From Sphagnum compactum (Eukaryota): 64,000 nt of DNA. The translations under genes were made by a program, and so were the position numbers. The stretch covers positions 28,758,213-28,822,212 of the forward strand of contig OZ234493.1 in NCBI GenBank assembly GCA_965153455.1, read 5' to 3'. The first letter of the stretch is position 1. Each line of letters starts with the position of its first letter. The notes beneath the pieces are model-generated. The model did not search any database and had not been told where the DNA came from. It saw nothing but the letters and a program-made list of their open reading frames with translations. Of this stretch, positions 1-35,322 are shown in pieces.

Positions 1-180
1 TGCCTCATAGGGTCTCTATGTCTATTCCATTGTGCATGCATGCACCCACTTATAGGAACATCTGTTGTGCTTAAGGTCCAGTTTTTGTGAAGCTGTTTTA
101 TCATCAAGTTTGTATAGCCACTCTTGATGTGAACCCTAAACCCTATCATGAGATGTCCTGATTTATATATATCCTAGCAG

Positions 181-3100
181 ACACCCATTGTGGTCATTGA
201 GATTTTGACAGTGCCGGCCAGTATTGATTTGCAGTGCATCCGATCAGAAAACAATGTTCTTGTATATCTTGCAACAGTGGTTATCCGTGCAGCCATCAAG
301 CTTGCAGCGGAACCTGGCACCACAGAAGGTGGCAGTCTTTTGAGGGTGAGATGATTTTTCTGAAGAGAAATGAATCTTTTTTCTATCTCATAATACCTAT
401 GAGATTTGGAGTGGACACTAGGCTGACCAACTGTTGATAGAAACTCTCATGCAACTAGATCTAGCTCACTTTACAGTCAGTGTCCAGAAATTATCATTGT
501 GACTACTATTGCTCTGTCCTTTTGTGAACTGTGGGTTTTGTTCGTGTTTGGTGGCTTATTGGGAAAAAGTTTCTTATCCTCAAGAAAAAAGTTGTGGGTG
601 GGTTGTGGTGGTTGTGCAGCAAGAGTTTGCAAACAGGTTGATGGTGCTAAGTGCTGATAATCTGCAGCAACTAGTGGCTTGTCTTCACACTCATTCACTT
701 GCCCGGAATAATTCTCTACAGGTCCTATTATATCCATTCATCTAAACTCTATATCTGCATTACGCTTTTGGCTTGCACGGTGACTTATATTTTGGTGCCT
801 TGACTAAGATGTACTACTTCTTCTTCTGAACTTACCCTACCTTTTGTGGAACTATTCTTCAGGTTGTGGGTCTTTTGGATACATTAGCATTGGTGCTTAA
901 TTCTCCATCAGTAGACAATGACACAGGACGGATGTGGTTGAAGGTACTCTGAATCTACTGGACCCGGAAATTTTGAACCTGCTGCATGAATAGAGCCTTG
1001 TACTGGACCCATGCATAAAATATTTGTTTTATGGTTTTACCCAGGCTTTTGAGGCATCGATGATGGCAGCAGCAGATATTTTCTGTGCAGTTTCTAGGTC
1101 TCCCAGTGCTGCTATTTTAAAAAGGTACCATCTATTATTCTCTACAAGCAATTTTTCTGATGAGTCCAATAAGAGTGGCTCTATCAGATCTCCCATTCAA
1201 ATCTACAATTTTTTTTTCCTGTCTGACCTTTTCTGTGGTCACAACTCACTTCAATATGAGCTGTGTAATTGCTTGGGAGATATGATGATTGGTCTCATCA
1301 GTGGAAACCACGATCATTAACCGAATATGTGTTATATACAGTAATTCAGAGCTGTTGAAGGCGCTCTTCACAAGGACATCACCACTTATCTCCAGCCATT
1401 TGCAAGTAAGTCTCTACACTGTATTTTTTTCTAGTAGGTACAGGAGAGAAGACAAATGAAACAAATGGCACCCACATGACAGAAGTTATCAGCCAGAGAA
1501 GAAATGAAAGAGAGGGTTTTAGGGCTTGGGGGTTAGGGGCTCAGGTGGGTATGTCCAATCACAGCTATTGGACTGATATAGATTTTGTCCAAGAGGAATA
1601 TGAGCATCACTGTTCTGTCGATAGATCAGAGAGAGTCAATACAGTACTGTCGCTCAAGAATGAAGAACTCCCAATTATGAACTCTCTCTTACTTGCTAAC
1701 AGAGGTTGTTGTGAAATAGGCCACCACTCCTTGTGCCAAAGTAAACATTCTTAAATTTCAGAGCGTTGAAGTTGATGACAATGTGTTAATGGGTAGTTCT
1801 TTTCTTCTGCTGTTATTGACACTGTTTGTGATTGATCAGAGGTTATTGACAGTTGTTTGTGTCTGAGCATTTAGGGTTTAGGGTTCTGAGCATGGTGGCC
1901 TTTTTTTGTGCTTTGCTTGAACTGCAGAAAGTCTGTCTAGGGCGCTGTGTGGTATTACTACACCTAAAGATGTCAATCTTTGCAAAACAGAGCCATGTCC
2001 GCACTTTGAGTGGCAATTTGGTCTACCTCATAATGGAAGGCAATCAGGAGGCACGCAAGCTTCTTGAAGCCCTGGTTCCCAAGGTCTTGAAAGCCCGCCC
2101 ACCCTCCTTCCTTTGTATCAATCCTCTGTGTACCACCACCATTGTGTTATAACAATGGGTTTCATGAGGCCCTAAACCCCAAACCCTAAACCCGGACACT
2201 ATTGCAAGCCCTTTTTTTGTTCTGTTAAAGGCTTCCAATCTGTGAGTGCTAAATTAGTTCATGTACTCCTCCTCTGCCACAGGGTGTGATGCAGTTATAT
2301 GCCAACAAGGCGGTTGAGCTGCAGCAGTCAGGCAAGGTACATATTACATCCTTGTCACTGGTCTCATCCTAAACCCTAAATTTATTTTCCTGAGTTTCTG
2401 AAGTTGATTGAACTCCAGCAAATGCTCTCCAAACACCCAATGCATGTACATATATATACTCTTTGAGCTCTTAGCTTGAAGCATAAGAAGCATGAGTTGT
2501 CTGTGGCTAGAAATGGGTGTTTCTCATGGAAATCCAACAAACTGCAGGAGGAATTATTCAGCAACTTTCGTGCATGGATGGAGACACTGGAAGTTTTACG
2601 TGGTCAGACTCTGGAGACACCAGTCTTAGTGTGGAATGATGTCAAACGCAAGGAGCTGAAAAAGGTATATAATAACATCGGTTTGCTGAGAGTCAGTTTA
2701 GGGTTTAGGGTCTTTTGTGGTAGACGTGCAATGAATGGCTTTTTCTTGAAGAGTGTCAGTGAGGGTCTTGTAGTAAAATAATGTTGTGATCTCTACAGAA
2801 TTTTATGTTTGCAGTTGAAAATTTGGTTTTGTGGGTGTGTTGTGCAGTTTCTGCAGGATGAGGTAGACAGCTTCTATGAAGCAGCAGCGGCCAATCCAGA
2901 GCTAATTTACAACAGTGCGGATGTGAAGCTTGTTTATTCCAGTGCAAGTGAGGGTGAAGGTTAGTGACCATCCTTAAACTTTTGCATTCTCCTCAGCAAT
3001 GGGGGGAGCAGCATGGATTATTGTAATCATTCTGTAAAGCTGTTTACTTCTTCCAAGAGGGTTGTTATCTGCTTAGGGACATGGGGACATATGAGTTGGT

Positions 3101-6100
3101 TGCAAAACAGCAGCTACTGAACAAGTTCTGTCTGTCATGTGCAGGCACAGTTGTGGGTGGTGTCCATCTTGAGCTTCTGGTGGACCACTCTCCACCAGTC
3201 AATCACCACAACCATTCCTTCTGGAAGGTTCATTCAGAGACACAATACCCACAGGACATAGTCAGCAAAAACATAGTAGTAAAATGTCAGAATTGGGCTG
3301 GTGGCTGTAGGGTTTAGGGCAACTACTGTATCAATCATTGTGCCTTTGATGGATGGTCTGTTATATGAACTTGTGAGATGTCAGATTCATTCAATTATAG
3401 TGACATTTTGGTTTGGTGGCCACAGCTGCACGAACCATTGTCTATATTTCAATCTGTATTTCAAGCTATGGTGTTGGGTTTCACCCCACTGTTTGGTCAC
3501 AACAACTTGCCGGAAATCGATCTACGACTGGCAAGCCACGTCTTGGCATGGATCTATGAGCGACATGCGGAGGAAGTTGCCTTTTGCTTAGAAACCTTGA
3601 ATGTTGTTGAGGTACCTTATTGCTTCTCCAATTCTTTTAGGTTTTCTTTTCACTCTTCTTCATATGGGGTTACTTACCTCTTTCAAAACTCCTGAAATGT
3701 CCAGTGTAGCTCCAAAAGAAGCGAAGGTTGTACTCTCAAGATCTTTCTTTACACTTCAATCTCCAGATGTGTTTTTGTTGAGCAATTATCAGCATCATGA
3801 TGACACATTGGACTGCACTGTGTTGCAGACTGCAGCAGGGATGCTCCGAGAAGTGGTGGAGAGTGTACATGAGGTATTTGTTTTCAAGCTGGTGGTGTTC
3901 TTGCTTGCAACAGTGGAAAAAGGAGGGCGTGACAATGTCCTGCGATTTCTCCGCAGTGGAGGAGCCACTATATTGGTACCCTTGGTTGTTTTGTCTTTGG
4001 CCAAGGTAACAACCCATTTATTATCAGAGCTTTATCCTATTTGAAGCCTTGTCTAGAGATTTGTGCTTGCAGGTTGTTTGTAGATTGCAGGATCTCAGGA
4101 TACAAAAAGAAAGCAAAGCCCTTCATCGTCCTTTATGGGCAAAGGAAGCTTTTGCAACCCAAAATTGTAGTAATACAGAAGAAGCCTGATTATTATATAC
4201 TTGTTTGGTCCTGTTGGCAGTGTTGCACAGACAAGCATGAATTTGAGTGTGATGCATCCACAGCCAAAGATATCATGTCTCAGGGTGCCGTTGAGACAGT
4301 GACAATTGTGGGATCAAATGGGGATGTGAGGCTTGTAAGGATTCCTTCAGGAAGAGCTCACGAATTGCTTGAGAGAGCAGAGCAAGATGGCAGCTTGGAT
4401 GCTCGAGAGGCAATCAAATGGCAAGATGAAAAAGTTCACGTGAAGATCCAGCTGGGAATAGCTCTTGACTTCTTGGAGGCTCTTTTAAGGTACCGACTAC
4501 TCCTTGACTTCTTGCCCTTGCCATGGTGGTCCAAAAGCACATACATTTAAAATGAAAAGGATGAGTTCTACTGGTTCCTAAACCAGAAACCCTAAACCCT
4601 AGCCTCAGGAGGGCTCACTTTCGAATTTCCTTGGTTGTCCAGGATATCAGGACACAACAGCAATGTGGAGCACTTTCCCCCATCAGCTGCATGTTGCAAC
4701 TTTTCCAAGGAGGAAATTTTCTGCCACTTAGTGCAAGCTCTCCTGCGTGCAAAGACACCTATCTTCAACAGGTTTTGCTTCTTTCTTGTCTCCACAGAGA
4801 AATTTTACATTTGAAGACTGCACTGTTGAACAAGCATCACATTTGCAACTGATGGATAAACCACCCACTTTGAGATTTTTGTTTGTGTTGAATATGATTC
4901 ACCATCCTGAATTGTTTGGATCAGAGCAGTTTTTTTAATATCTGGCAGTCTGCTGAGCATTTGGGTTGTCACAGGATACTTGAAATTGTAATAACTTTAG
5001 TGAAGGCAAACAAGACTGCAATGTCACACCTGTACAAACTCGGAGCTTTTGAGATCCTTCTCTGGAAGCTCCTTGCTGGTGATATTGTTGACTGGGACAA
5101 GTCCAGGATTGCTGAATTCCTGTCACAGTCTCATCTTCTTCAGGTAATTTCTATTTTGTTCTTAAAAATCTGTTTCAACCAGTGCTTTCTTTCAGGAAGG
5201 AAGGAAGGACATTCCTGCAGAGGGGAGAAAAAAACAGAAAGATCTGATGACAATGGTAAATTTGCAGGAGTTGACAACTACTGATAATGGAAGTGGCCAG
5301 AGTGAACATGGCACTTGGCGGGACAGTATTCTTCATCTCTACTTGCCCGAGGGATTGATACTGAATCTCATGTCAGAGGTGTTTCATACTGATCCAGTGT
5401 AGTAGTTCATGTTGAGAATCTTGTTTAGTTTCTGTTCGGATTTAGGGTTAATGGTTAAGGGTTTAGTGGATGATGTGAGATCTGGAGTGTCTTAGTTCTA
5501 TGTTCAAGTCCTTGTGTTGTTGCTGATTTAGCTTTAAATCCCAAGTTCTACTTCTAGTTCCTTCGAATACATGCACATAATCAAATTTGATAATAATCTT
5601 TCTACTAGTTTGATTGGAGTTGCTCTCTGTCAGTTTCAGAGGGGCAATGACCTTAATTGGCTGAGATTTCTGGATTTAATGGGCAGGGACCCGATTCGTT
5701 CATGGCACTTCTGGATTCGGAGCAAAATGCCCCAGAGGTGATCTGGAACTTGGAAATGAGGAAGCGGTTGCTTGATCATCTCACAACTGAGCTAGAATCT
5801 TACGTCAAGTTCCGTGCCACCGATCCCCTGGCATTGTACATTCACATTCCCAGGACTCCATTGGCCTATCCAGAGCTGGCAGGTAAGCTCAGCTGCACCA
5901 CATCCAGGAAAAACATTCTGAAGTAAGAACCAAAGTTTGTTTCTTTGATGTATTGGGTCTGAGGTTCAAGGTGTTTTATGTAGCACTGACTGTCTTGTTT
6001 GTGATATTGTATCAAAATCTACAAGTGGGATTTTTTGTTTGACATGGTTGGAAATCAATGGTATGCAGAGTCTGTGTTCTCTTCCCCTTTCTATCTACAG

Positions 6101-9100
6101 AACTTGCTTGACTTTGAGCGTTTTCCAAATTATCCAATCAATGATCCACTTGGGTTCTTGAACAGCCTCATGCTGGTAAGTCTAAACCTTTCTTTTTCAA
6201 TTCACTAAAGTCATAGATCCTTAGAAGATCCTGGAACTGAAAGTTTAGCAACAGCTTGAATAGTCTGCAGATGTAGAACATTTGGTTTTTGAAGTTTGTC
6301 CCAATGCATGCATGGTTAGATGGAGGGCATTCCCTTTGAGAAAAAAACATTATTGACTGCAGGACCTTCGGAGATTGGCAACAATTCTTGGCAACTCTAT
6401 GAGTGGTAACTCCTTATGGCGCAAGGAGTTACCGCACATTCACCTTCTTCTTCAAGCTCAGGTAGGTTGGGCATAAACCCTAACACCAAAACCCAGACTT
6501 GGGCCACCTGCATTGATACTTTTATCTCAGATTATTTATTCACAAATCTTTTCAGAGCAATTCTAACTTGGTTTGTTTGGAAAACCCCATCTACTTGCAA
6601 GGAGAAAGTTTACATGTGTCCTGCCACATGAGCTATGGTGACTCAGTACATATGTTGGTGGTTTGATGATGATGATGTTGCAGTCATATTTGGTCGATCA
6701 TTTCCCAGACCTTGCCCTGCCCAGTGACATAGAATCCGTACTCATTACATTGGCTACCCCTTCACTTCAAACCTGCCTTGCTCAAAAGGATGAATTGCCC
6801 CTTGTAGCAACAGACATCCTGCACCACACTGTTCGAGTTTTGCGGAGATACTGTGCTGCAAGCACCAGGTAAGAAGCTAATGATCAAGTCAGTTGGGAGT
6901 CATCATGGACAGTTTCATCATCACTGCTGCTATTCATATGGGTGAAGGTGATGATCAACTGACGCTGTGTGAGTGACACTCATAATAAGGTTATTGCTGC
7001 ACTTTGTTCTTATGGGATCATATTCTTTCTTTCTTATGCTTCAGGGATGATGATGTATCAAGGGCATCTGTCAATTTCGGTCTCAGTGTGTTGTCACTTG
7101 GGACAAAGTTTATAGCAGATGAAACCTCCCCAGAGGCAAGCATTATCATGGGTCTTGAATCAGCTGTTGCTGGGTCTCTGTTTGTGATGGAAATTGCATC
7201 TTCATCCAGGTTAGACCTTTCTGCTTTAAACTAAACCCCTCAGGAAAGTGATAGCTAATCTGTCCTGCCTTGTCAATTTGGAAGGAACTCAACTGATAAT
7301 AATGCATGGATTCTTAGTCACCGGATAGATATTTGCCAGACTGCTCTGAGTCCATAACAGGTTTTGTTCTCATTTGGGCTGATTGCTTTTGAATTTGTTT
7401 TGCATTATGGTTGGTACCCCAGAGCTGGTAGGCAGCTTCTGTGGGATGATAGCAGATGGAAAGAAGGCTTTTGGTGGGCTCTCTGTATTGCAGCCAGTGA
7501 TGCATTGGCCACTCCTCAAAGGGGTCCAAGCCCCTCATCCTTTGCAGTATTGAGTTGTTTGAAGCACTTTGCCGAAGATCCAGACTACTGCACACATATT
7601 ATCAACCAGGTCACATTTCTGCTTTCTATTGTGGTCCATTAAATCCCAAGTTCGTTGACCTGTTTCTCTACATTGCTTCCTTTTGTGTGTGCTTGAGCAA
7701 ACCTTTTCTCAAAAGAAGAAGTCTGGCCATCAGTACACTGATTGACTGAGAAGGTGTTGGGATATGTTGCAGGCTCTATACTTGCCATTATTGTTACTTG
7801 CAATCCCACCTGCAAATGCTGCATTGGTGGCCCAAGGCACTAGATCTGCTCTTCTTTACTCAGCAGCAGATACATTAGGATCTCTCATCCGTATGCTGCA
7901 GCAGTCAGGGAGACAACACCCGCAAATGGAGTCCACAGTGATGACACACTTGATCCCTAGGCCACTGCTTGCTTGCCTTGAGCAAACTGAGGGGCCAGAC
8001 AAGTTTATGACCATGGCTAGTTCTGATCTCCGACAGCCATTGGCCATTTGGAACTTGGATGTTCGGGCAGAGCTCCATATGCGGGTCACTGAACGGTTGG
8101 AGCTGCACCAAGCTGTTCTGGCTTCTGGGAGTGGTGTGATGGATGATAATGAACTGGAATGGTTGCAGGGCTTCCAGTATGATTGTCTCAAGGATGAAAT
8201 CATCTTGGGTGGTTTGTTTGTGAATGGGTTCACCTCCGAGAGGTGGGAGGCCTTTGGTCTACCAACCGGTCATGTCTTTCTGGATGCTATGTTGGATTAT
8301 CTGGAGATCAATCTTCATGTCCTCGATCCACTTGTGCACATGGGAGTTGAGGCAGCAGCAGATGACACCACTGACCCAAGCGAGGAGGAAGTTGATAATC
8401 AAACCAGAGTCAATGAGTACTTGACCGTTCTCACTGCAGTGCGTGAGTGCCTGAGATATGCAGCAAAGTCTGGCAGGCTTGATTTGATTGGATGTGTCCA
8501 GCCCCTGGTGCTGTCGAAAATTTCTTTGGCCGGCAAAAGCATGCCAAAAGTACTGATTGAGATTGCTACCATTACGAAAGTATTGATTGCAGATGACTCA
8601 GCACGAGAATCTGTGCTACAATCTGATCTTATCAGTACACTGGCGGGTCAGCTTTGGGAATGTGTGACCAGACTGGAAGAGGAAGGAGTGGAAGATATTC
8701 TTGTCGCCACCCTCAATGTGTTGCACATGCTGAGTGAGCAGATCCCCGCAACAGTTGAAGCCACTAATGTCTTTGCAGGCACTGGGCTGCTATTGCCCTT
8801 GTTGGCCATCTTTTGCAACATGGGTCTACCAGATCTTACAACTGGGGTGGCTGCAGCAGAGACAAGACCTAGTAATTTGCAACGTTTCTCTGCAACTACT
8901 ACAGGACGAGTATTAGCTGCTAAAACTCTTGGGCAGCTCTTGTTAGCAGGTAGTGGGGTCACTTGTCGAACAAAGCTCATTGAGGATCTGGCCCTCCTGA
9001 AGAGGTTGGCAAATGGGCCTGCCAACGGCCATACGAATTATGATGAAGGGATAGGGGAGGCTACAGATATGTATGAGCTGATAAGTATACTTGACCCTGT

Positions 9101-11482
9101 CAATATGGACAAGAATCAGGCAGCTGTCGTCATCCGTACGCTTCTTCTCCTGCTACCTGTAGACCTTTTATCCACTTTGGCACGAGACCCAATAGAGGCT
9201 TGCAAAATGCATGACGGGAATTATCAATCCCCTCGCCTTGTGTGGGATGATGGCAGACGGCAATGTGTAAGGCAAATACTTATGGATGAGGCTTTCAAAG
9301 TGCGAGATACTGTAATGCAACAGGATTTGTCAAGTCTGCCAGCGTGGTCATTGGTACAATCACCACAACCCATGTTTCTGCGTTGGATACTTGTCACCAT
9401 TTCTGATGATGAGAGCCAAGCAATGTACAGGGATGACAGAGAAGATGGTTATGCACGAGAGATGTACCTAGGGGGTTTCTTTGTTGATCAATTCATAAGA
9501 GACCCAGGTTATGATTTTGGCAGCATTCTCGAGGGGCGTTTCCTTTGTGAGATTCGCAAGGCTGTGGCAATTGGGGCTTATGCGGAAGTATTTGATTTTG
9601 ATGATAGGAGACGACTGTTACTCGCTCTACTCTTGCTCTTCAAAGCGAGGCCATACTTGCTTTCTGGCCAGTCAAATATCGACATTTTCTTACCTGTCTA
9701 TGATTTCATCAGTGGCAATTATGCTAGTGAGCGTCGTGCTCTTGCTCAGCCAGCAATTCTATTGATTCATTCCATTGCCAACCATCCAGACATAGCCGAT
9801 TGTATAGTCTCTGAGGAGTTGGTGTCAACTTTGGTATCCTTCCTTGATTTGAATGTCCCATTGTATGCCGCAGGGCATGCTGGGACTGACCCACAGATAT
9901 GCAGCCTTATGTTGTTGCTGCGCCTGATTCGACTCAGTAGTGCAACTGTAGAGATTGCTCTGAAGCTAGGGGTTGTCTACCGCTTAGCAGGTATTGCCCT
10001 TGACACCAATGGAACTAGTGCAGTAGCTCATCGTGCGCTCGAGTGCCTTGCAATGATGTGTGCAGACAAGCGTCGAGGACATGAGGTGAACAGGCTCTTA
10101 GAGAAACTTGCACCTAAGGATACAACCAAAAACTATGGGAAATGGCATATTCCCATTGACAACATCTGCGATGATGTTGTGGACTCTGAGACTATCAAGC
10201 ATTTGTTGCATCATAGATACCCATGCGAGTGGTGGGTCCTCAACACTCCTGAAGGAAGAAGCGATGTTGAAGTTAGTGGTCAGCTCAGACACATGACAAC
10301 AGTTGTGGTGGATGCCTCAGTTTCATTTCCCAATGGACAAATGTCTGATTTTAACGATGAGTTTGAAGGGGCTTTCAGACAAAGCGTTGCAGACAGAGCT
10401 GAGGTCAGTATTGGCGATGTACACATTCAGAGCAAAAGGGCTGGAAGCCTTATCATTGACTTTGAGGTGCACTTTCAGCAGCGGCCACGACAACAACAGT
10501 CTAACAAGACCATCATCATCCAGCATCAAGACTTGGAGGCAGATGCTCATGCATTCAAAGAGAATCTAGAAGATGGTAGCAATCAGCTCTTTGGTGCTCC
10601 ATATTTTGAGTCAATGGGGCACCCGACTTTCACAGTGATCAATCTAAGACATTTGTCTGAAACAGAACTCCTTACTGAAGGTCAGGCTGCACCACCTGCC
10701 ATTCAGGAGAGCTTAGAAGCCAACATCCAACAAACACAGATACCTCAGCACAGGCTGCAAACCTCAGATATGGACGCAGGAGGAGGTCTGGATAACTCAG
10801 CTGCACAGCAACAGTTGTTACAAAACATGGCCAATGAAAAGCGTGGCGCATCAAGTGCTATCCAATTCAGCAAGAGTGAGGAATGTCATTCAGAGCTGCA
10901 CATTGGAGAAGTACATAAATCCACCACCCCAGCATGCAGTAGTAGTAGTAGTACATCATCATCATCATCATCTCTGAACCAAGCTCCATTGTCAGAGACT
11001 GGTATTCCCAATGCTCAGGTGGATCCCCACATCATTACCCAAGGTCCTCATTTTATCGTCTTCTCTCTCTCCATCTTCGCCCTCTCCTGCCCATACAATG
11101 CCAAGGGCTTGTCTCAGTCACAGTGGTGCCTAAAAAGAATCATGCTGGGTTTCATTAGAATTGTATTGATTGTCTATCCGTGTGAACTCCTTTGTAATTT
11201 ATATGTGGCTTGGCTTCTTCTGTTGTTGGTATGAAGAAATTCTGCTCATCAGAGTTCTGAACTTGCTGCTGGTGCTGTTTGTGTTGCAGATGTAAACTCT
11301 CTTGACAAATCCACAAGCAATGATTTTATGAAGTCTCAGGATAATGAAAGGTAATTGGTTTGTTTCCACTCTATTATGGTTAGGGGTAGGGCTATCAGGG
11401 TTATTATACAGTTGCACTTTATTAGGTCAACAAACTGCTTTATCATGTGTCTTTTGTTTTACACAGTGAAGCAATGAGTTAA
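181..11482 (+). CDS. RME-8/DNAJC13/GRV2-like ARM/IWN-repeat protein; divergent paralog without J-domain and with a C-terminal SEA-like domain (5' end lies upstream of the window)
   Basis: Phase-consistent GT-AG exons: 181-345, 620-721, 863-943, 1045-1124, 1342-1405, 1928-2083, 2283-2336, 2548-2664, 2848-2959, 3145-3227, 3426-3611, 3829-4005, 4221-4489, 4643-4771, 4975-5143, 5268-5378, 5687-5882, 6069-6175, 6363-6461, 6684-6868, 7045-7209, 7423-7609, 7773-11043, 11290-11350, 11467-11482 (last two less certain). Four IWN-type repeats: LVWNDVKRKEL, VIWNLEMRKRL, AIWNLDVRAEL, LVWDDGRRQCV. The block SILHLYLPEG..GPDSFMALLDSEQNAPEVIW..YPELAESVF..YLQNLLDFERFPNYPINDP closely resembles RME-8. Confidence 0.88.
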
Positions 11483-13404
11483 CCCATTGGATTTTGTTGC
11501 TTCATAAGAGGGGTCCATCATGTCAAAACACCAAGAAAGCTGATACCGTACTTTCTTGTGCTGCTAGTGACTACAGAATGAATGCGTTGGGAAAGGCACT
11601 GCCATTGGTCCTTGATGGGGCAGAGATGAATCAAACCAGGAAAAACTCTGTCATCACTGGTTTTCTTGAAGCATTTGATGGTATGTCATGTTCCACCTGG
11701 ACATGAATGTGATCCCAATGAAAGGACCTCGCATCATCATTCCCAGCTACACCTGGGCACACCCCTTGTTTTTTTTGGTCTGTTGTTTTGGAACCTCTGT
11801 ATTGGTGAATACCATCTGTGTAAAGAATCTGATAAGTTTTTATTATTTGAATCTATTGCAGATCAAGGGGAGTTGGTTGGATGGTGCGGAGGCCAAGGAT
11901 GTAAAGGAAAAGTCCAAGTAATCCAAGTCTAAACCCTAAACCCTAAACCTGGACATGTCTGAGCTGGGGAAAAGGTACTAAATACAGAAGTGATTGTGAA
12001 AAGGTTGTTTCCACATGATTTTGAAAATACGCATCTCCCCCCCCCCCCCCTCAACTGCCCCCAACTCAAATTGTGACACATCATCATTTGGTATGTGGTC
12101 AGCCTGGGTATGGTCCAGTAGATGTTTGGTTATTTGTACCAGTTATTGAAGCTACCACAACAGAGTGATATGATGTTTAGTGACACAGAACGCCCAAGGC
12201 AAATAGGTCTATGACTTGCAGAAGAGAATTGGCAAGAGAATCAGCACTCTAGATGGTTGTGTTGTCAAAGAGCAGGACAAAATCAACAAAGAAGAAAAGA
12301 TGGGAGCATGGGTCATAACCAATTAATGCAAAAGGTGCTCCAATTTCTAGCCAATTAGTAAAAGATTCTTTACACCTGATATCTGCATTAATCAGAATAG
12401 CTTCCCTCCGACTGTGATGACAACAGTCTGTTCTTGTTCAATATTGTAGATGAGGAAAACCATGGTGGGCACTAGTTCAAAATATTGTAGTTCATGAGGG
12501 AAAGCACAGGTGGGTGGTAGTAGTAGTAGTAGGTTTGAGAGTGACACCCACATTTTAGACTTTGGGTATGTGTAAACCCTAAACCTCGGTCCCCTGTCTG
12601 CACTGATTCTTGCTGTGCTTGTTTTTTCTTTCCTCTACTACTACTGCCTTTTACTGTTGTTCTGTGAGATAAAGTTGAGGACTAGTAAGATTTGAGACAC
12701 TTCATTGCTGCGAGGGGAATTCTTTTGTTTCCTTCCCTATTTTTCTTTGGGGCAGGAAAGAGCTCTTTAGGATTCAGAAGAAATCTAGTAATTGGGTCGT
12801 TTCCAAAATGTCCTTAAAACATTTGGAATCTGCTGGTTGCAACAGTGTCTGTTTTTCAGGGAAGATCAGATACCGTATATCAACTTCAAATCATTTATAA
12901 TTTTGTGGGCAACTTGTGCTGCTTCTTGCTGTGAGGCTTGCAGTAACGGTTTTACAAGTCTCACACTGGTTCAAATTTTCCTCCATCTTTGAAAATTGGA
13001 ACTCCTAGTAAAGGTTTTTTCATCTCGATTAGTGGATGTGGTTTTTGAAATTCATTTGGAACTTGTTCATTCATGATAACACTTTAACAAGGAAACATGT
13101 TAATCACAAGATAGATGTATATTCATAAAATTGGTAAGAAGGTTCAAATGAAAAGCCAGATTGAAAACTTGATTTTCCTTGAAGTTCAAACTCAATTAGT
13201 GCTTGAGATAATCCTAACAAGGTGTGCTTTACACAATGGCCTTGCCATTAACTTAATATCAACAATTGAAATTGTATGACAGATTGGTCATAACTTGGGG
13301 GGAAAATTTTAAATAAATCTATTTTAATGTACATCATCATGTTGTTGTAAAAGAAAATTGTCATGATTTTTTTTTTTCATTTTTTAACATCACATTAGTC
13401 ATGA

Positions 13405-23442: not shown

Positions 23443-24558
23443 TGATGTCTTCAGGTGTACAGTTTCACCAAGAACGTGGGTTTCATTTGTGGGTTCTCAA
23501 ATTGTATTAGCTATGATGTATGAGGTCTCTTGGTCTGTTTTGCATTGGAATCAGAATTCTTCTTCTACAAGTGGATTTTCTGAGGCATGGATGTCAGGAA
23601 CAGCCCACGATTGTATGTATATACGTTTGCATGCAGTAACAATTTGCTGCATCATTTCTCCTGGCTTGGACACATTTGCAAAAGCATGGATGGTGTTCTG
23701 GAACATGTGCTTGTGACAATTCTGCACTGTCCAGATATTTTGGGTTTTTGCACATTGTCTTGCACTGGTTCACATCAAGAATGCTGCTGATGCAATCTAT
23801 CTACAGAAGCTTCGGGTTGGAGGAGGCTAATGTTCCCTGTCAGAACAATTGGGCTTTTTTCAAAATAGATTCCTAATGGGTATCTGTGTCGCATGGTCCT
23901 TGAATTTCTTGCAATGCAAATTTGACAAAGCTTCTGTCAATTTGGTTACAGACTTTTGATCACTCATTCCTGGGTTGTATTGTACTTGTTTTAAGGGCTC
24001 TCATTGCCATTTCTTGCATTTAGCAATAACCCCAAACTTTAGAAAGCTTAAGAAATCAATACTATGGTAAAATCATTTGTGCCATGATATGCACATACCA
24101 TTTGTATTTCAATGTTGTATCTGTGCAATTGTAAATAAGGTAGTGAGTTTTGAAACTTCTGAAGAATTTTGAGTTCCATATAATTGTTCGTATCTAAATA
24201 GTAAGTTTAGCATTCTTTTTGGAGAACAAAGGTTACTCTTTGAAGCTTCTTTTGGAAATTAAACATAACACATTGATTTTGTGCTTGGAGTTTGAGCCTG
24301 ATATTGGTTCTCATCTTATTGCTCCTTGAGTTTCTACTTTGAGAATCCACTTCCTCTTTGGAGGAGCAAATATTTATTTCAATTTTCTGATGTTTCATCA
24401 TTTGATATTAGCATCTCAAGAGGGATTTAGCATTAAATGGTGACATGTTTTTAGAACCTCTCTAAAGAAGTAAGAAAAAAACTACTTTTGAAGATTCTCC
24501 CAGACTAAGAGTCTAAATACTAGAGTTATCCATAAAGTAAGCTAGTCTGAAGTCTGAA

Positions 24559-24934
24559 CCCTGTCTTCGGGCCTCCTTCCACCCTCTATCCCCTCTTTCA
24601 GTGGTATCCGCAAAGTAAAGACATTTTAATAAATCTCAGTATGAAATGCTGATACTCAGCATTTAAATGCACAAGGTTCGAGACTAACTATAGTAGTTGT
24701 ACAGTTAGGAGCAGTGAAAATATATGTAGCAGCAGAGGAGGCGCTTAGGAAAAAGGAACGAACGACAGGATGAAACTCAGTTCATCACCAAATGGATGGT
24801 TTTCTGAGTTTCATCCCCCGTTGAATGCTAACGTACTTGTTTTTCGCAGGTTTTCTTTTGAATCTCACCCTGTGTATGACCAAACTCAGGGTTCTGGTGC
24901 TGTGTTTTTTTCTTACTTTATGGATAACTCTATT
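24559..24934 (+). repeat. Dispersed ~350-bp repeat, copy 2
   Basis: Same family as 15903 and 34959. Contains a perfect 13-bp stem GGATGAAACTCAG...CTGAGTTTCATCC (~24768-24816). Confidence 0.85.
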
Positions 24935-26789
24935 ACCCAAAAAAAAGTTTCTTTTGTTTTTTGGGAATTTGGGCGATTTCTTTTCAGAAAAATAGAATAG
25001 CCAGACCCATTTCTTGAGTGAAATCTGGCTACTAAAACTATTCTGGTACTATAGTTATGACATTACAATGACTTAGTGTGACCAAATTACTAGACTCACC
25101 AAATGTATCTATTAATTGCACCCATATCACACTCTCTCAAACACATGAATCTTTCATCATAATAAAAAGAGTATATGACAAAAATATATACATAATAATA
25201 ATACTCTATCTATATATTGTGATTATAGATATATTGTATCTATTATATTATCTATCTATGCAATCTTGTAATTTTTTATTATTATGGAAATTAAATCCAT
25301 CAACTCCCACTACCACAAGTACATTCCATTCAAACCATGAAGGTTGTCAACAATAAATAGGCTATTGATAATGTAACTTTGTGGATCACACATAATAATT
25401 CAGGCCATAATGTTAAGGAGAGTTTTTTTTTTAAAAGTGTTTGTTATGATTTGTCATACAACTCTCCAAGATAGTAATTTTTCCAAAGGAAGGTTGGACT
25501 TGGGTAAAGATCTTAAGATGTTTACAACTTGAATGGTTTTGATGTTGAAACTTTGATTGAGTTTGTTTTAAATAATCAATAAAATATATCACCTTTTAGA
25601 AAATATCGAATAATAAGATGTCAAATATTTGACTACAATATTTGATGATTGTCGACAAATATTTTTAAAATAGTTTGCCAAATAATTATGCATATTACAA
25701 AATTAAATAATTATAAGATGAATGAAGATAATAATAATAATACATGTTTACTTCATGTGCTTCTTAAAATATACAAGGAATAACATCCCTATGCTTGAAC
25801 ATTGTGCACAATAATCGATAAAATTTAATAAAGAAGGGAACTATATTCAAGTAACTCAATCAAAACATCACTTGGACATCATGCACAATTGGTCCAAGTT
25901 ACTTGTTTGTCTCAAATTTTAATGTTGCTGAGTAAATTGCCATTTTCATTAGTTCAATGGGAAGTATTCTTCAAGTACATGTTTAATCAAGGACTCAACA
26001 TATTGATCCATCTACTCTTGATATTATGAAGTAGCTTATTCATTTTTGTTTCAACGATTTGGGCCATTTGTCAAATTCTTAATGGTGTTTCAAAAGCTTT
26101 TTTAAAATAAAATAAAAGAACTGGATAAGTCTTCTAGGTATGCTACCACATGCAAAATAGTGGGTTTGGACTACCAAATTTGTCTTGTCTACCTTACAAT
26201 CGATCTTGGTGAGTAAAGGGGTGTGCACCTCTCAAATCTTAACTATAGTTCTATGACAAGCACCTTGAAATATACCCACACCATCTACATGGAATCATAA
26301 TAACATGTTGGGTACCTTTGATTCTATTAAACCACGATAAATGGATAGTGTATTCATGATCTAACCCTTGTCAAAGTATGTGCATTGGATCCTTCCTAAA
26401 CATGTTCAACTACAAGTAAAATAGGGATGTGACATGACTCCTCAACACAATATCCATGAATAAAAATTCAACTTTGGTTATCCATGTCACAATGCCACTA
26501 ACCTAGCCCCTCGGATGTCAAACTTGGTGACTACTAGAACTTGCTAATTCCAATCATGGATGCCCATAATTATTTCCTAGGGCACATTATGTTTGAAATA
26601 TTTTTATTACAATTCATAAATATGGAAAACCAATGTTTTAAAGCAATATGAAAAAAATATACTTTTAGCAAGTATGTTGAAAATATTTAAGAAAATATTA
26701 ATACAAAATCACACTTTAACTTTTGGTGATTTTAGGTTCCAAAGCACACAAGGAGCAAGAACATGTTTTGTGCATATTTGGGTTCAAAC

Positions 26790-27746
26790 CAGTGTTGTGC
26801 ACATGCGGGTATATAAGGGTAGACCAAGGTATCAACTCTGTTATGAACCCTAATATTAAAAACCATACCAATTTGACATAAGGCCTTGCCAATACCTAGG
26901 TTCATAACATACCTACTAGTCTTTACACATGTTACACCCTGGCCCATAACAGACCAAACTGATATTCTAGTCTATAATATTATGATTTAGGATTTAGGGT
27001 TTTTTGGAGTGTTTCATCAAGGTCTTGGTATTGTGTTTCATACTAGGAGCTTTAATCTATATGCACACCTGGGTCTTGGGTATGGCACTTTAGGTTTAAA
27101 TAATGAGTAATGAGAAAGGGGTGGAAGTAGCAAAGTGTTGTACCCTAGTAATGAGGAAGGAGATTAGAGCTTTAAAGTAAAGATCTTTTGGGAGGCGTGT
27201 TTCACAACAATAACATCAAATGGTGCTCAAGAAAATCAATAAGCTCCTTTGAAAATTTGAATGAATTGAGAAGGGTTGTGCACTCTTGAAAAAAATCTTG
27301 GTTGTTTTTGCAAAAAATCAATTGTGATCTATGCTTCCAAAGATTACTTGCCTAGTTTGTGACCTATTGCCATGAACCCCCACTATCTTCATTAGCTCCA
27401 AATTGTGGGTGGGTGTAGATGGAATACATGACGATCTAACCAAAATTGTCTAGACTTATTTATCTTTGTTGGTTCATCGTGGAGCATTGTTTAAGGTTTG
27501 GAGTTTTTCCAATTGTCATGAAAAATACCAAGACTAAGGTTGATATCCACTAATATCAACTTTAAAAGAATAAGATTGATATCATATTTATACTCAGTAT
27601 CACATTTTAGGTTTTAAATACCAAATTTACACCTAATTTGATCATTTCAATTACATAGTTGGACCACATTCATACCCCCCTTCCATGATACTAGACATAC
27701 AAGGACCAATATAGTATGTGTAAATCTATATATCCGCACAACACTG
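26790..27746. mobile_element. Non-autonomous hAT-type element
   Basis: TIRs CAGTGTTGTGC ... GCACAACACTG, flanked by a perfect 8-bp duplication GTTCAAAC (26782-26789 and 27747-27754). Confidence 0.85.
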
Positions 27747-28899
27747 GTTCAAACACTAATGTAGGTTGATGAAGTTTTGAATAATCAAACTTAAGATCTA
27801 GCTTTAGTGTGTAGTAATTAAGTTTGTTGTGTTTTATTTGCATTATAATGAATTTTTTGTGGAAATTCTTGGTTTATTGCAAAGGAAAAAGTGACAATTT
27901 TGAGGTGGTTTTCCACATTCATGTGGAGTTGAATCCTAGTAAAGCATGTTGCACCTTAAAATAAGAAACTAGGGAAATATCTTACATACATTGTTTCTTG
28001 GGGGCATAAATGCATAAGTTGTTCATGTCACACGTTTGGTTGGTGAGTCAAAGAAGGTTGTGTCGATGGAAGTTGTCATTGGCAATTGTACTCCAAATTT
28101 ACCATCAATGCACCATACAATATAAAGTTGAAACTTACACCCAAGATTTTAGTGCTTACACAAAGTTTAAAAAGAGTTGTTGCAAGTTGCAACACAAATG
28201 CAACACAAATGTTTTTTTGCTTGTAACCTACTAACCTTAAACCTCATATGATGTGACATAATTAAAATAAATTATTTGTGAAAGGCAATAAAAAGTTGTG
28301 ATGTTGAAACTTGATAACTTAAAATCACAAAGTACTTTAAAAGCTTGAAGATGACCGAGAACAACTAGTTGCCAAACATCTTCGAAATAATGAAACAACA
28401 TGGAAGGGATGACCTTACATGAGGTCTATTTGCAAGATGAATGGCCAAATGTTCATCATATGGCTACTCAACTTTGAATTAACATTGTAAGTTGCAACTC
28501 ATGTGAGGCCAATGAATGTGTCTTGTACAACACTTGGCCCTTGCAAGTTCTTCATTGTGATGTGATGGCATTATATGATTATTGTGCAATGAATCTTGTA
28601 AAATAAGTTATCATATTTCCTTTGTGTTTAGGATTAGGTCGCATGTAAGTTGTTTCCATTTTCTGGAACTTGGCAATTTGGATTTTTTTTCTTCAATATT
28701 TGATGAATTTGGGTCATTTTTTCCATGAAAAATCCTTTGTATAAGTGGAAGCCATATTTTTTAGGTCAAAATTTGGTGAAATGTTGCCTTAAAAAGAATG
28801 GATTTGCACCCATTTCCAATATGAGGTTATGGTAGATTCTTCCCCCAACCCCACATGGTTCAACCTTTGGGCATTGGGAAGCGAGCCCTTTTCTTGCTT

Positions 28900-29140
28900 T
28901 TATACATAGCCAAAAATATATATTAAAAATAAAAATGTTAAAATCAAGTGCTTAAAAAATATTTTCATAGCCATAATTTGACCTTTTTTAAAAATTATAG
29001 ATTTTGATACATGGTTCAAATATGTAGCACAATAGAAATAAGGTTTTTTTTGAAAAATCATATTTAGCATGTTGCCAAATTTGCCTAATTTTTATGTGGA
29101 TAATTGCCATTTTGGCTACATCACAAAATTGAAAAAAAAA
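28900..29140 (+). repeat. Dispersed AT-rich repeat (TAGCCAAATTTGGCTA family)
   Basis: Collinear similarity with 63195-63470. Related pieces at ~16645-16775 and ~35760-36060. Confidence 0.6.
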
Positions 29141-29527
29141 CCTCTTAACAAGGTTTTCAACTCTCCACTTATTGTTTTATCTTCTTTCATTGGTAGTTCA
29201 CAAAAAGAGCTTTACATATGCAAACCATCAGCCTAGGAGTTTCATTATTTACATGTAGAATATTTCATTTATTTTGAAAAACATTTCTTTGGTATTTCAT
29301 TCTTTAATTAAAATTTAAATACCTATTTAACATGGACAATGTTAATAGCTAGCTTAATGTGTACAATTAGGATTGAAAAGGGGGTCAATCTATGAATGAA
29401 AGCCCAACATGAAGTTGGAGCTAAGCTTGGGACTTGGTTTCCCATAATTGTCCCATTCAAGGTCCTTACATGACATAAAGATTTGGTAGAAATGGCTACC
29501 ATTTTTTTTGAAAAGGAGAATAGAAAC

Positions 29528-30366
29528 CAATGTTTGACGGTTATTTGAATTTTTAAATAACTAGCTATTCAATTCATTAAAATTTTCAAAATAAAAAAAC
29601 CATCAATTATTTTTTTTGGAAAAAAATCAAAATTAGATGATTGTCAGTTACAAGTATTTAAGAAGCATCAAAGAATCAAAAGTTATCATGAAGAATCAAC
29701 AAAAAAATGGTAGTTAGAAATGTGGGTTTTTGAAAATTTCACAAACATTGAAAACCAAGGTTTTATACCAAAACCAATTTTTAAAATTTTCACCCCAACT
29801 AGATAAGTGAGTATACATTCGAGTCAAAAAATGGTGGGTATGTATAGTTGATATTAATACCCACACAATAGTGGTATCCAAGTGTTAAAATTGATGATTT
29901 TGGATTTGAGTATCAAAAACCTAACTTGATTGGATTTAAATATTAATAACTTGATCTAAACCATTACTCATGAATTGCCAATCATAATAAAATTGGGGTA
30001 AAATTTGAAACTTTCTACCTAGTTGTTTTTGGTGGACAAAACCCTTGAGATCTACTTGGGTTTCAATGTCTTAGATGGGTACTATTAGGGTTAGAATTCT
30101 TCCCATCACTTTGAGTGTATATGCTTCTTTTGAAATCATAACTTCAAATCCTAACTTTACTTATAATTGCATCCACTTCCACAACCCTAAGCTTTACACC
30201 TAATAATTGCTATGAGTTGAAAAAATAAAATGATTCACCATACTCAAAGGTTTTGAAATATTTTGTTAAAAGTTCAAAACCTTACTAAAGAGAGTAACCA
30301 AAGTTGTAAAATATAAAATATCTAGGATCATATGTTCTCTTAAAAATCAATACCCACCCAACATTG
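29528..30366. mobile_element. Non-autonomous hAT-type element
   Basis: Termini CAATGTTTG ... CCAACATTG. The 8-bp flanks ATAGAAAC and GTAGAAAC match at 7 of 8 positions. Confidence 0.65.
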
Positions 30367-30499
30367 GTAGAAACCTTATGCACAAGGTTACTTGTTTTGA
30401 AGAACCATGTGTGCAAAAATATTGATGAAGGTAAAATACCTTCCACATACTAAATTTTTTTTTTAATCAATTTTTACAATGTTATGTAAGGGTATATTC

Positions 30500-33400
30500 A
30501 CAGCGGCAAGAAGTGACCCAAAAAAGGAAAGGTGTCTTACCATTTGCCGTTTACTAATGTAGGTGGCAATTCACCAAAGGTGAATAGTAATCAACATTTT
30601 AGCAAATTCTCTATTTGTCATTCAATGTCTTTCAAATTTGTGCTTGAAGGTTGGGCACAATATGTGATCTTGCAAATCTTTCAAATTGAGACAATTGGGG
30701 TGATTAACATTTACATTACTCAAACTTCCTTGGAGAAGGCTCAAATTTGGAAGCTCTTGGAGCAATTGGACATGGTGGCAAACAATTGGATATTTGGTGG
30801 GGACTTCAATATGGTGGAACAAATTTCCAACTCACAATCCAAAGGACATAATATCACTAGCATCCCTTTACTTTAAGTTGCAACCTTCAAGATGGTTGGG
30901 AGTTGGACTCATTTTGCAAACTTTTGGACAAAGTTTTAACCTTTGACAATGGTGGGTTTGGGGGTGCATCTATTATTTCGAAATATATCATTTTCATGTC
31001 TCTCCTATGATGGATTTGAGGGGTGGGAGAGTGGTAGTAAATGCCACAATGAGAGTCACTTCTCCCTTCATTGTGTGAATTAAGCCAAAAGACATCAACA
31101 AACATTTGTGATGAATTTGTTTCGGAAGCAAGGTGAATCTATTTTGATTACATGCTTTCAAGGTGGACTTTAAGATGAATGTCACTTTAACCAAAAATCT
31201 TTCATTGGATGAGGTTTCCAAGTGCAAGGCCCTAGGTTGGGATGGAATTCTCACTAAATTTCTTTCAAAAACATTTAGAAGCCATGGCCTTTGTTCTATT
31301 GAAAGCCTTTTTTTAGATTTTGGACTTTGATTTATGTTGGTCAATTTAACCATAGCCATGATCGTTCTAATATCAAAGAAAGGTGACAACTACCTCATAG
31401 GGAATTAATGCCTTATCATCTTGCTTGGGAATGTTTTGAAGATTTTTGCTAATTTTTTTAAAACTAGGTTATAAAAGTTCAATTTGTTATCAAACCAAAT
31501 TAGGTTCATTAGAGGTAGGAACATTCATGATAACGTATTCTTAGCCAATGAAGCCATGGAATGGACGAAATTCAACAACCACAAATTTGCATTGCTTTTT
31601 TATATTTTGAAAAAACTTTCAATATAATTGATTGGATTTTCATTTTTTCAACTCTAAAGGTTTTAGGTTTTATTGAAACTTGGGTGAAAAGGGCATCCAC
31701 CTTTTATGTAGGAGCTTCTTCTTCAAAAATTGAATGGTGAATTGAATGAATCCTTTCCTTTATGCAAATCAATCGAACAATGTTATTCGTTCTCTATTTA
31801 TTTGTTCATTTAGGTAGTTAATGTATTTAAATACATGTTTGGATATCCTTGCTTCACTTTGCCCAATAGAAATATGGCGTAAGACCAATCATTCATAATA
31901 ATGCAAAAAAAATTCTAGGATTGTGAATTAACAATTGGAAATGAGACAAGTCTACTCTTGACATTTTTTGTAAAATGACCAATGCTAAAACCAATTGGGC
32001 AATATCCATGGGCATTTGGGCATCCAAGACACCTCAACACCTACATTGGAGCAACAAATACGAAATGAAGTTGGTATTGAAAGGCCAAGGCATTAGGTAT
32101 TTAGGCATGCTTGTAGGGTTCAAGTTGTTTAAGGTTGCCAATTTTGAATAACTATTAGAAAAGGTCAAGGCAAAGTTCATTAATTGGTCAAATAAACAAC
32201 TATCATGGAGGCAAGGGGTTAGTCATAAACCAAATCCTCTTGGTGACTATCTAATTTCTAGCAACTTGTTGGAGCCCAACTCCCAACATGTGCATTCAAC
32301 TAAAGGGACTCATTTGGAATTTTATTTGGGGCAACCGCAATGAAAGGGTGAAAGCTAAATTGAAGTGAGATGTTTTCATTTTGCCTTAATGGGCTTGGAA
32401 CGATGGACCCATAATAAGCCTAGGCAAAAGTTCTAGCCAAAGTTCTTTTGGCAAAATTATAAATTGGAATATTTGTTCCTAGCTAGTGAAGAACCTTGGA
32501 AAAGTCTTCTTTTTTGGAGGGTTAATAAAATCCAACCAAGTGGGAAGGCATGTCAAATGATAGCTCAAGTTTGCACTTGGCTCTTTTTAGCAAACAAATT
32601 CAAGAAATCAACTTTTGAATTTTGGACAACCATTATGGAAGTTCGGTGGAGTGTCAAGTATGCTTTGATAAAACAAGACCCAAATAGACTAAAAGAGGTA
32701 TTGAGGTGATCAATATTTTTTAATATTTCCATATCACATATTCAAATAACACTCCTTTTGGACTTAGGGATACCAAGGGCCTTAAGCAACTAATCAAGAC
32801 AATTATTCAATTTCCCACATTAGTGGGACACAATATCTAGCAATAGCTAGAATATTCTAAAACAAGTAGGAGTTAATGCAAGGAATGCCAATGCTTAGAA
32901 ATGCCAAAACACTTTTTAATTGCATTCCATGGGACTTGGGCAACTTGTCCATTTCCTTGTTTATGGGCAATAGGGTAAGTCAAGGTCCAAGTGAGGATGT
33001 TCCAACTCCCAACTAGGTTTACAATATCTCCTTGATTCATGACAACATGATGGATGTTATGAAATTTCAATAAAACAACTTAGGTCAACTAACGTGCATA
33101 GGCTCTCCTCAACTTTCTTGGTAGTCAATTTAATGGGCATCAACTACCATAAAAGTTGAAAAGTTGTGAAAGTGTTACTCAACACAAGTTTGCCAAGCAC
33201 ATGGAGGTTTTGCAATACAATTGGTGGGAAGATAAGGAAGGAATCCTTTGCTTTTTGGAGAAGTTTTTGTGGAATCCTTCTCCTTGGACCTAGGTGAGTG
33301 GAAGTGGATGGATTTCCCAAAGATTTAGCCCAATGAGCTTACTTGGTTACATGGTCAAAAGTGGGTATGATATTATTTTGCATAAGAAGCAACAACCATT

Positions 33401-34958: not shown

Positions 34959-35322
34959 AATAGAGATATCCCTAAAGTCAGGAAAAGATAGCACCAGTAC
35001 CCTGAGTTGTTTGGTCATACACAAACCTGCAAAACAGTACATTAGCATTCAACAGGGGGTGAAACTCAGGAACATTCCTGAGTTAGTTTAACCCTGCTAG
35101 AGCATCTCCATGGGCTGTTAGTTACATAGATTTTCACTGCTCCTACTTGTACAGCTACTACTACTACAATTCCTCTCGAACCTTGGTGCATTATTAAATG
35201 TCGAGATTCAGCATTTCTGTACTGAGTTTCAGCATTTCATACTGAGATTTAATAAAATTTCCTTACTTTACGGATACCACTAAAAGAGGGGTTAGGGGGT
35301 GAAAGGAGGCCCAAAGACAGGG
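34959..35322 (-). repeat. Dispersed ~350-bp repeat, copy 3 (inverted)
   Basis: Reverse complement of the 24559 copy along its full length, ending ...GGAGGCCCAAAGACAGGG. Confidence 0.85.

Follow-up and report, generated by a model that had tools for sequence, protein, structure and literature searches.

A transcribed RME-8/GRV2-like gene without a J-domain in peat moss, and its relatives across streptophytes

Background

Proteins of the RME-8/DNAJC13/GRV2 type are defined as J-domain co-chaperones, whose recruitment of Hsc70 is credited with the uncoating of ESCRT-0 and clathrin and with the regulation of retromer/SNX1 microdomains. Here we present a gene of this superfamily that encodes no J-domain, found in a 64,000-nucleotide stretch of the peat moss Sphagnum compactum (GenBank assembly GCA_965153455.1, contig OZ234493.1, positions 28,758,213 to 28,822,212 of the forward strand), which we call the window and in which positions are counted from the first letter. 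A preliminary description of this DNA had interpreted the gene as an RME-8/DNAJC13 paralogue from which the J-domain had been cleanly removed. Our analysis shows the locus to be a real, transcribed gene and makes it probable that it belongs to a separate and old J-less lineage of streptophyte RME-8 proteins, and that its product is likely to be a non-catalytic scaffold or regulator at endosomes.

The models against which such a protein has to be considered come from animals. In the parts of a survey of RME-8 across eukaryotes on which we draw (PMC9642905), the J-domain of the Caenorhabditis elegans protein binds the region of the third and fourth IWN repeats (IWN3/IWN4); for RME-8 as a whole, the authors propose oligomerisation and autoinhibition. 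In human cells, as described in portions of a second paper (PMC11702692), mutation of the histidine-proline-aspartate (HPD) tripeptide of the J-domain raises binding to phosphatidylinositol 3-phosphate (PI3P) and to endosomes, and causes a dominant-negative-like clustering of endosomes. The same parts of the eukaryote-wide survey report homologues with mutated J-domain residues and an apparent absence of RME-8 from gymnosperms; these main-text parts, supplements aside, make no mention of a J-less family. Nor did full-text literature searches turn up a description of any RME-8/GRV2 paralogue without a J-domain, and this branch of the superfamily is apparently undescribed. In the databases its members are labeled as hypothetical proteins or as DNAJC13; because the family has no J-domain, the name "DnaJ homolog subfamily C member 13" (given, for example, to the Marchantia protein P0007) is misleading.

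The gene and its transcription

The window is nuclear DNA of a peat moss (Sphagnum), its large exon (7806-10700) showing 98% protein identity to the S. magellanicum gene product CY35_08G060500 (P0001, 2540 amino acids), its orthologue or allele. Residues 461-2540 of P0001 are collinear in tblastn with positions 202-11021 of the + strand, the sole off-diagonal match being that of IWN2 onto IWN3. A splice-aware model guided by P0001 comprises 23 exons (220-11021, +) with 2068 codons and 0 stops, which agrees with the earlier claim of an open frame of more than 2000 codons; 22 of its 22 introns are of the GT-AG type, and 2022 of 2072 aligned positions (97.6%) are identical to residues 469-2540 of P0001. 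The first ~460 codons of the gene lie upstream of the window. On re-reading the sequence, the exons, their coordinates and the two intron lengths (187 and 222 nucleotides) in the preliminary description proved exact. At the 3' end, the open frame of the last exon extends to 11231 (+); the S. magellanicum model stops one residue past 11021.

Transcription was assessed over positions 5400-8400 using raw reads of polyadenylated (polyA) RNA with the same species label (X23) and metatranscriptome contigs (X1, X6 and X7). The junctions on either side of the short exon that stands in the place of the J-domain are both joined by spliced polyA reads: 9 reads with 7 different starts span 6175|6363, and 18 reads with 13 different starts span 6461|6684. 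The remaining four junctions in this interval have 5-11 X23 reads each, so that six of six are supported, and the contigs contain six (X1), six (X7) and five (X6) of them. In X23, bins that lie wholly within introns have a depth of 0-1 and exon-rich bins one of ~10-20, and the first mates of this stranded library lie on the - strand, which means that the RNA is of the + strand. Over 5400-8400, no other joint leading to an additional exon reaches 3 X23 reads. Both the prediction of an expressed, spliced gene and the two critical junctions named in the preliminary description are thereby borne out by RNA. Inside the large exon, 3 and 4 X23 reads diverge into unlike sequence at 7992 and 8040 (+), and a slight depth of first mates on the + strand is present at 7925-8126; the paralogue, antisense RNA or a minor isoform may be the source.

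Absence of the J-domain

A Pfam search with P0001 recovers the RME-8_N domain (PF19432; E 4.8e-42, residues 42-676), in keeping with the family assignment made earlier from the letters, and no DnaJ domain at E<=0.1; the diatom RME-8 protein P0023 yields both RME-8_N and DnaJ. A hidden Markov model (HMM) trained on J-domain sequences from 12 RME-8 proteins scored 85-90 bits on control RME-8 proteins, which were kept out of the model but are close relatives of its members. Over positions 1-12000 of the window (711 six-frame pieces of at least 8 amino acids) its best score was only 3.3 bits, over the whole 64 kb (4105 pieces) it was 4.5 bits (E 6.5), and it gave no match on P0001, P0002, P0005, P0007, P0058 and P0055. 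Ten + strand pieces from the two introns that flank the short exon contain no DnaJ match by Pfam at E<=10, and the 82 six-frame pieces of at least 20 amino acids that overlap 5883-7770 have no HPD tripeptide except for a chance NHPD far inside the large exon. A J-domain with its HPD between IWN2 and IWN3 is absent from the gene, from the introns and from the 64-kb window; what the preliminary description had said of the protein and of the flanking introns in this respect holds in both cases.

The place from which the domain is missing is sharply bounded. When P0001 is compared with ten J-bearing RME-8 proteins from 6 distinct clusters, the top BLASTP segment ends in 10 of 10 cases at P0001 residues 1240-1246, which is 42-57 residues ahead of the HPD of the subject and just before its J-domain; the exon junction 6175|6363 falls at P0001 residues 1241|1242. 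Upstream of this point the 11-mer PEVIWNLEMRK of the IWN2 block is identical in the J-bearing diatom RME-8 P0024, and RFPNYPINDP of the moss matches RFPDWPIAEP of the same protein. A MAFFT alignment of 30 full-length sequences comprised 18 J-less proteins of streptophytes, 5 further J-less proteins and 7 canonical ones, the canonical set being drawn from diatom, Leishmania and unnamed sequences; the IWN2 block is common to all 30, as is the block hLLLxAQxhhxR. Homology to canonical RME-8 halts at 6175|6363 and picks up at the HLLLQAQ block, which confirms by software the position between the FPxWPIxxP and LLxxQ blocks that the preliminary description had given for the J-domain.

The spacer from YPINDP to HLLLQAQ measures 29-38 residues in 17 of the 18 streptophyte members (63 in the remaining one, P0031) against 91-123 in seven of seven canonical proteins. 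With medians of 37 and 102, the two groups differ by ~65 residues, the size of a J-domain. Four non-plant J-less proteins have spacers of 20-22 residues and a fifth, P0082, one of 94. In the moss protein 24 residues lie between ..LNSLML and IHLLLQAQ, or 35 when counted from the P of YPINDP to the H of HLLLQAQ, so that the figure of about 20 residues given previously was roughly right. When the J-less and canonical sub-alignments are compared with hhalign (probability 99.9, E 5e-30), the J-domain columns stay unmatched. MAFFT had set the DLRR of the linker under helix II of the J-domain, as a candidate remnant; hhalign aligns the same DLRR to the segment before the J-domain, and we rejected the remnant.

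Within the family, WRKE and HLLLQAQ of the linker exon are conserved. A family fragment, P0042, is 42% identical to P0001 residues 848-1797 and collinear through the junction. Its AlphaFold2 (AF2) model, made from a 25-row alignment, has a mean predicted local distance difference test score (pLDDT) of 81 and renders the linker as helices (H385-405, H409-415 and H417-433; block pLDDT 75-89). As modeled, the linker at the junction is a structured connection and not a disordered scar.

Distribution and phylogeny of the family

Three word-indexed searches were made with the Sphagnum protein. The C-terminal half gave 24 matches among longer proteins, 2 of them with a DnaJ domain and both from diatoms; residues 1-700 gave 24 matches, 0 with DnaJ; and residues 1020-1300 gave 26, 2 with DnaJ and both from Leishmania. 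An exhaustive search of 1.84 billion sequences with the C-terminal 1084 amino acids recovered 54 unnamed representatives at E<=1e-3, 14 of them at E<=1e-30. The family members found carry PF19432 and no PF00226. Among bryophytes they come from S. magellanicum (P0001 and P0002), S. balticum, S. tenellum, Physcomitrium (P0005), Ceratodon (two), Marchantia (P0007) and Calypogeia; among vascular plants from Selaginella, Adiantum, Ceratopteris (two), Taxus, Cryptomeria and a Gb_ record, which from its identifier we take to be Ginkgo; and among zygnematophyte algae from Closterium and a jgi/Mesen1 record, presumably Mesotaenium. The preliminary description had supposed a restriction to non-seed plants, which fails because gymnosperms and zygnematophyte algae carry the family; the pattern is that of streptophytes minus angiosperms. 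None of the 18 named members is from an angiosperm (0 in word-indexed protein searches, no tblastn of angiosperm genomes having been made). A real loss in angiosperms is likely, since flowering-plant proteomes are abundant in the sources and the gymnosperm proteins are 44-48% identical to those of mosses. Over the C-terminal 965 amino acids, identity is 41-48% for ferns, gymnosperms and the lycophyte, and 52-56% for other mosses and liverworts, but 41-44% for Ceratodon.

The protein of the window and 17 of the 18 aligned members share RME-8_N, IWN1-4, the helical linker of 29-38 residues and WRKE..HLLLxAQ. The second J-less paralogue of S. magellanicum, P0002 (CY35_05G081400), has 3311 amino acids and is 81% identical over conserved columns; its tail is ~700 residues longer, and the first part of the C-terminal domain described below is apparently missing in the annotated model.

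A maximum-likelihood tree was computed from the 30 rows (1656 columns, LG+C20, quick search, unrooted) after columns less than 80% filled had been dropped, which removed those of the J-domain. The streptophyte J-less sequences form one clade with support of 100, and its inner order is that of the species tree, which points to vertical descent under constraint. The stem of this clade is long (1.46 changes per site), and identity to any canonical RME-8 is 19-30%. That the gene is functional rather than decaying is supported, at the level of sequence comparison, by its intactness across streptophytes and by a tree that follows the species tree.

Retained and changed domains

The gene product is a ~2500-residue alpha-solenoid of the RME-8/DNAJC13/GRV2 superfamily. 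It retains the PH-like RME-8_N head, the membrane-binding region of these proteins, and its IWN1-4 align in order with the seven canonical RME-8 proteins; all four repeats are kept, as the preliminary description had it. No GYF_2 domain (PF14237) is detected in P0001 (Pfam E<=0.1) or in window positions 3933-4547 (E<=1). This domain is located between IWN1 and IWN2 in three of three canonical proteins scanned, and precomputed domain annotation lists it for 2 Leishmania proteins as well. The moss gene has in its place an exon encoding a shorter, family-conserved segment, and a small beta element is present at this position in the P0042 model; a very degenerate remnant of GYF_2 may survive there.

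Beyond IWN4 the family has a C-terminal domain of its own, observed in Sphagnum P0001, Physcomitrium, Marchantia, Calypogeia, the Gb_ record, Selaginella, Closterium and the Mesen1 record, and not found in the seven aligned canonical RME-8 proteins. AF2 models it with a pLDDT of 80.2 and a predicted template modeling score (pTM) of 0.76. Foldseek returned no PDB match at E<=1e-3, and a PDB sequence search with P0001 gave 0 matches. In VIA-align the highest Z was 8.6, and many chains of the ferredoxin/SEA-like kind scored Z 6-7.6. Judged from the model, this is a generic fold that provides no functional lead.

As a statement of local architecture, the clean removal of a J-domain therefore stands. 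As history it does not: the low identity to canonical proteins, the long stem, the missing GYF_2 and the additional C-terminal domain indicate an old and strongly diverged streptophyte family and not a recent deletion.

Table 1. Features of the J-less RME-8/GRV2-like gene in the window
Feature	Coordinates	Strand	Basis and remarks
J-less RME-8/GRV2-like gene, part within the window	220..11021	+	tblastn, spliced model; corresponds to P0001 469-2540; 3' terminal splice from the model only
IWN1, core LVWNDVKR	2626..2649	+	alignment with canonical proteins
Exon at the canonical GYF_2 place, shorter family-conserved segment ..VGSNGDVRLVRIPSGR..QDGSLDAREAIKWQD; ..DGxxRLVRIPSGR..QDGSLDAKEAIKWQD	4221..4489	+	alignment, Pfam
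Exon with IWN2 core EVIWNLEMRK (5735-5764)	5687..5882	+	sequence, junction reads
IWN2	5735..5764	+	alignment with 7 canonical proteins
Exon closing the IWN2 block, FPNYPINDP (6122-6148) then ..LGFLNSLML; ..FPNYPINDPLGFLNSLML	6069..6175	+	alignments, junction reads
Intron, 187 nt, GT..AG, without J-domain coding potential	6176..6362	.	9 spliced reads/7 starts, depth ~1, Pfam and J-domain HMM
33-codon linker exon DLRRLATIL...WRKELPHIHLLLQAQ; DLRRLATILGNSMSGNSLWRKELPHIHLLLQAQ	6363..6461	+	occupies the place of the canonical ~65-residue J-domain
Intron, 222 nt, GT..AG, without J-domain coding potential	6462..6683	.	18 spliced reads/13 starts, depth 0 in bin 6511-6611
Exon SYLVDHFPDL..., conserved block after the J-domain	6684..6868	+	alignments, reads; aligns to the canonical LLxxAQxLxxRF block region
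Large exon, last in the window, ~1083 codons: IWN3, IWN4, C-terminal extension	7773..11021	+	tblastn; junction 7609|7773 with 5 reads
IWN3, AIWNLDVR	8043..8066	+	alignment with 7 canonical proteins
IWN4, RLVWDDGRR	9234..9260	+	alignment with 7 canonical proteins
C-terminal domain of the family, ~130 aa, beta-alpha-beta-beta-alpha-beta, ferredoxin/SEA-like	10275..10670	+	conservation, AF2

Elsewhere in the window, an open frame at 38058-38723 (+) with four EF-hand matches (EF-hand_1 E 5.4e-30) belongs to a gene for a calmodulin-like or calcium-binding protein. Two open frames at 55099-57024 (-), probably exons of a single gene for a nucleotide-sugar epimerase/dehydratase, have matches with E 1e-18 to 9e-26 to the families of NAD-dependent epimerase/dehydratase and GDP-mannose 4,6-dehydratase. 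The stretches 24000-35000 and 42000-48000 are AT-rich (G+C fraction 0.30-0.37 versus 0.41-0.48 in genic parts) and probably represent intergenic or repeat DNA.

J-less RME-8 proteins outside plants

RME-8_N proteins without a DnaJ domain also occur outside plants, in five of five tested (E<=0.01): P0058 (UniRef100_A0A6A7FQV3), P0055, P0082, and P0071 and P0078, the latter two from Pharyngomonas kirbyi. An ESM Atlas search with P0058 returned generic ARM/HEAT look-alikes and one RME-8_N cluster. Three lineages are apparent in the unrooted tree, namely P0058, P0055, P0071 and P0078 as a separate clade with support of 100, the canonical proteins with P0082 beside them, and the streptophyte J-less family. 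The 94-residue spacer of P0082, an unnamed metagenome record, includes a J-like segment (..LRVRYRDLCKKGA..VRVAYESL..) that has no HPD, and to judge by its sequence this looks like a J-domain decaying in place.

Evolutionary and functional considerations

Because the moss protein has no J-domain, it would most likely be a scaffold or regulator at endosomal membranes and not a catalytic component; by itself it should be unable to stimulate the ATPase of Hsc70. The most likely mode of action would be a constitutive binding of membranes or partners. It is conceivable that it also associates with canonical GRV2, the J-domain of which might be engaged or sequestered in trans by IWN3/IWN4. The ferredoxin-like C-terminal domain and the long tail would probably serve lineage-specific partners. 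Hsc70 independence, regulation of retromer and dominant modulation of GRV2, all of them put forward in the preliminary description, are points that we can only infer by analogy.

Several points weigh against this picture of the gene and its product. Membrane binding, partners and the relation to Hsc70 and GRV2 are all extrapolated from animal homologues that are distant in sequence. The asparagine of IWN3 is replaced (IWT) in many family members, and the contacts described for the C. elegans IWN region may not hold in them. The window does not reach the N-terminal ~460 residues with the part that binds PI3P, which are known only from P0001. A modulator of GRV2 requires that Sphagnum also have a J-bearing GRV2 or this version fails, and with GYF_2 lost and divergence so strong the protein may function away from endosomes altogether. 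As to selection, related metatranscriptome contigs present 12 synonymous and 12 non-synonymous exonic variants and a crude ratio of non-synonymous to synonymous rates (dN/dS) of roughly 0.3, which speaks for conservation but is a small count (24 exonic variants among 40 of 79 rows) taken from contigs of mixed, unnamed species.

Of the other ways to explain the locus, an artefact or pseudogene arising by mis-assembly, mis-annotation, a skipped exon or the decay of a duplicate might be suspected from the shortness of the exons around the gap (99-196 nucleotides), from a first description made without tools, and from the 63-residue spacer of P0031, itself maybe an annotation error. However, we regard it as extremely improbable in view of polyA reads that join 6175 to 6363 and 6461 to 6684 across introns nearly without depth, an architecture that is the same in all 18 aligned members, whose sequences come from independent genomes and transcriptomes, and 2068 open codons with no J-like coding potential in any frame of the 64 kb. 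There is also a small chance that the J-less protein has replaced canonical RME-8 as the main or only protein of this type in non-flowering streptophytes, with Hsc70 brought in via another J-protein, in which case it would not be a modulator of GRV2. This would fit with the presence of the J-less family in gymnosperms and with the lack of any identifiable canonical plant GRV2 in word-indexed or exhaustive searches seeded with the J-less protein. But these seeds were J-less and three of the searches were limited by the word index, so that the non-retrieval of GRV2 says little; the gymnosperm absence of RME-8 in the survey is, in the parts drawn on here, called by its authors a snapshot of available proteomes (PMC9642905); and Sphagnum itself has two J-less paralogues, P0001 and P0002.

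An unlikely alternative is that the moss gene descends from an ancient second RME-8 family, a paralogue without J-domain and GYF_2 that predates the major eukaryote splits and in which the J-domain was maybe never there. In favor of this proposal, each of the five J-less RME-8_N proteins tested from outside plants lacks DnaJ, P0058 aligns without interruption across the P0001 junction (1023-1285), and the four non-plant proteins with the 20-22-residue spacer also have gaps at the GYF_2 region. All J-less rows but P0082 fall on one side of a branch of the unrooted tree, with the seven canonical proteins and P0082 on the other (Shimodaira-Hasegawa approximate likelihood ratio test 84). Moreover, the Sphagnum-seeded searches retrieved canonical RME-8 from diatoms and Leishmania and no plant GRV2, which is odd for a recent plant duplicate. 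Against it, the two J-less groups score higher in profile-profile comparison with canonical RME-8 (551 and 726) than with each other (374), both J-less groups sit on long branches (stem 1.46, end branches 0.7-1.7) that invite long-branch effects in a quick search, and the tree is unrooted and without canonical streptophyte or chlorophyte sequences. The J-like segment of P0082, with its HPD gone, makes in-place decay and hence independent losses plausible. Two early eukaryotic RME-8 lineages, of which the J-less, GYF-less solenoid would survive in streptophytes other than angiosperms, in Heterolobosea and in other protists, are an improbable scenario; if it were true, the moss gene would be a view onto an Hsc70-independent endosomal machine lost by flowering plants, animals and fungi. 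In a tree without a root and without canonical streptophyte representatives, a loss of the J-domain from the streptophyte gene and its absence from the beginning are both conceivable.

The reading that we favor, a separate J-less streptophyte lineage of likely scaffolds or regulators, has several implications. From algae to conifers the family would represent a natural separation of the scaffold functions of a giant solenoid from its chaperone function, and it would serve as a natural control for the models of autoinhibition and oligomerisation derived from animal mutants. Since bryophytes, ferns and gymnosperms have the family and angiosperms have apparently lost it, the endomembrane equipment of model flowering plants would differ from that of the other land plants. 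The role of the gene is open to genetic testing in Physcomitrium and Marchantia.

Comparison with known systems

The closest described relatives are the canonical RME-8/DNAJC13/GRV2 (KAM2) proteins, with which the moss protein shares RME-8_N, four IWN blocks in the same order, the alpha-solenoid build, the FPxxPIxDP motif in the IWN2 block, the LLLxAQ block that follows the J-domain and a similar length from IWN1 to IWN2. It differs from them in having no J-domain or HPD, a spacer shorter by ~65 residues and no detectable GYF_2, in its added ferredoxin-like C-terminal domain and tail, and in an identity of 19-30% with a long stem. J-domain proteins at large (Hsp40/DNAJ) are set apart from it by the J fold and the HPD tripeptide, neither of which it has. 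The non-plant J-less proteins P0058, P0055, P0071 and P0078 resemble the family in combining RME-8_N without DnaJ, IWN blocks, a short spacer and the lack of the GYF_2 region; they differ in forming a separate clade, in being closer by profile to canonical RME-8 and in lacking the C-terminal domain. The DNAJC13/RME-8 proteins with a mutated HPD or an otherwise perturbed J-domain, as presented in parts of two studies (PMC11702692, PMC9642905), are similar to the moss protein in being RME-8-type proteins unable to activate Hsc70, a property that in the moss is presumed. They are animal point mutants that keep the J fold, unlike the moss protein, which is naturally J-less, long selected and known from sequence. 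In these parts of the two studies, the mutants provide the sole experimental hint as to how a J-less form might behave: a stronger association with endosomes and PI3P, clustering, and loss of the autoinhibition between the J-domain and the IWN repeats.

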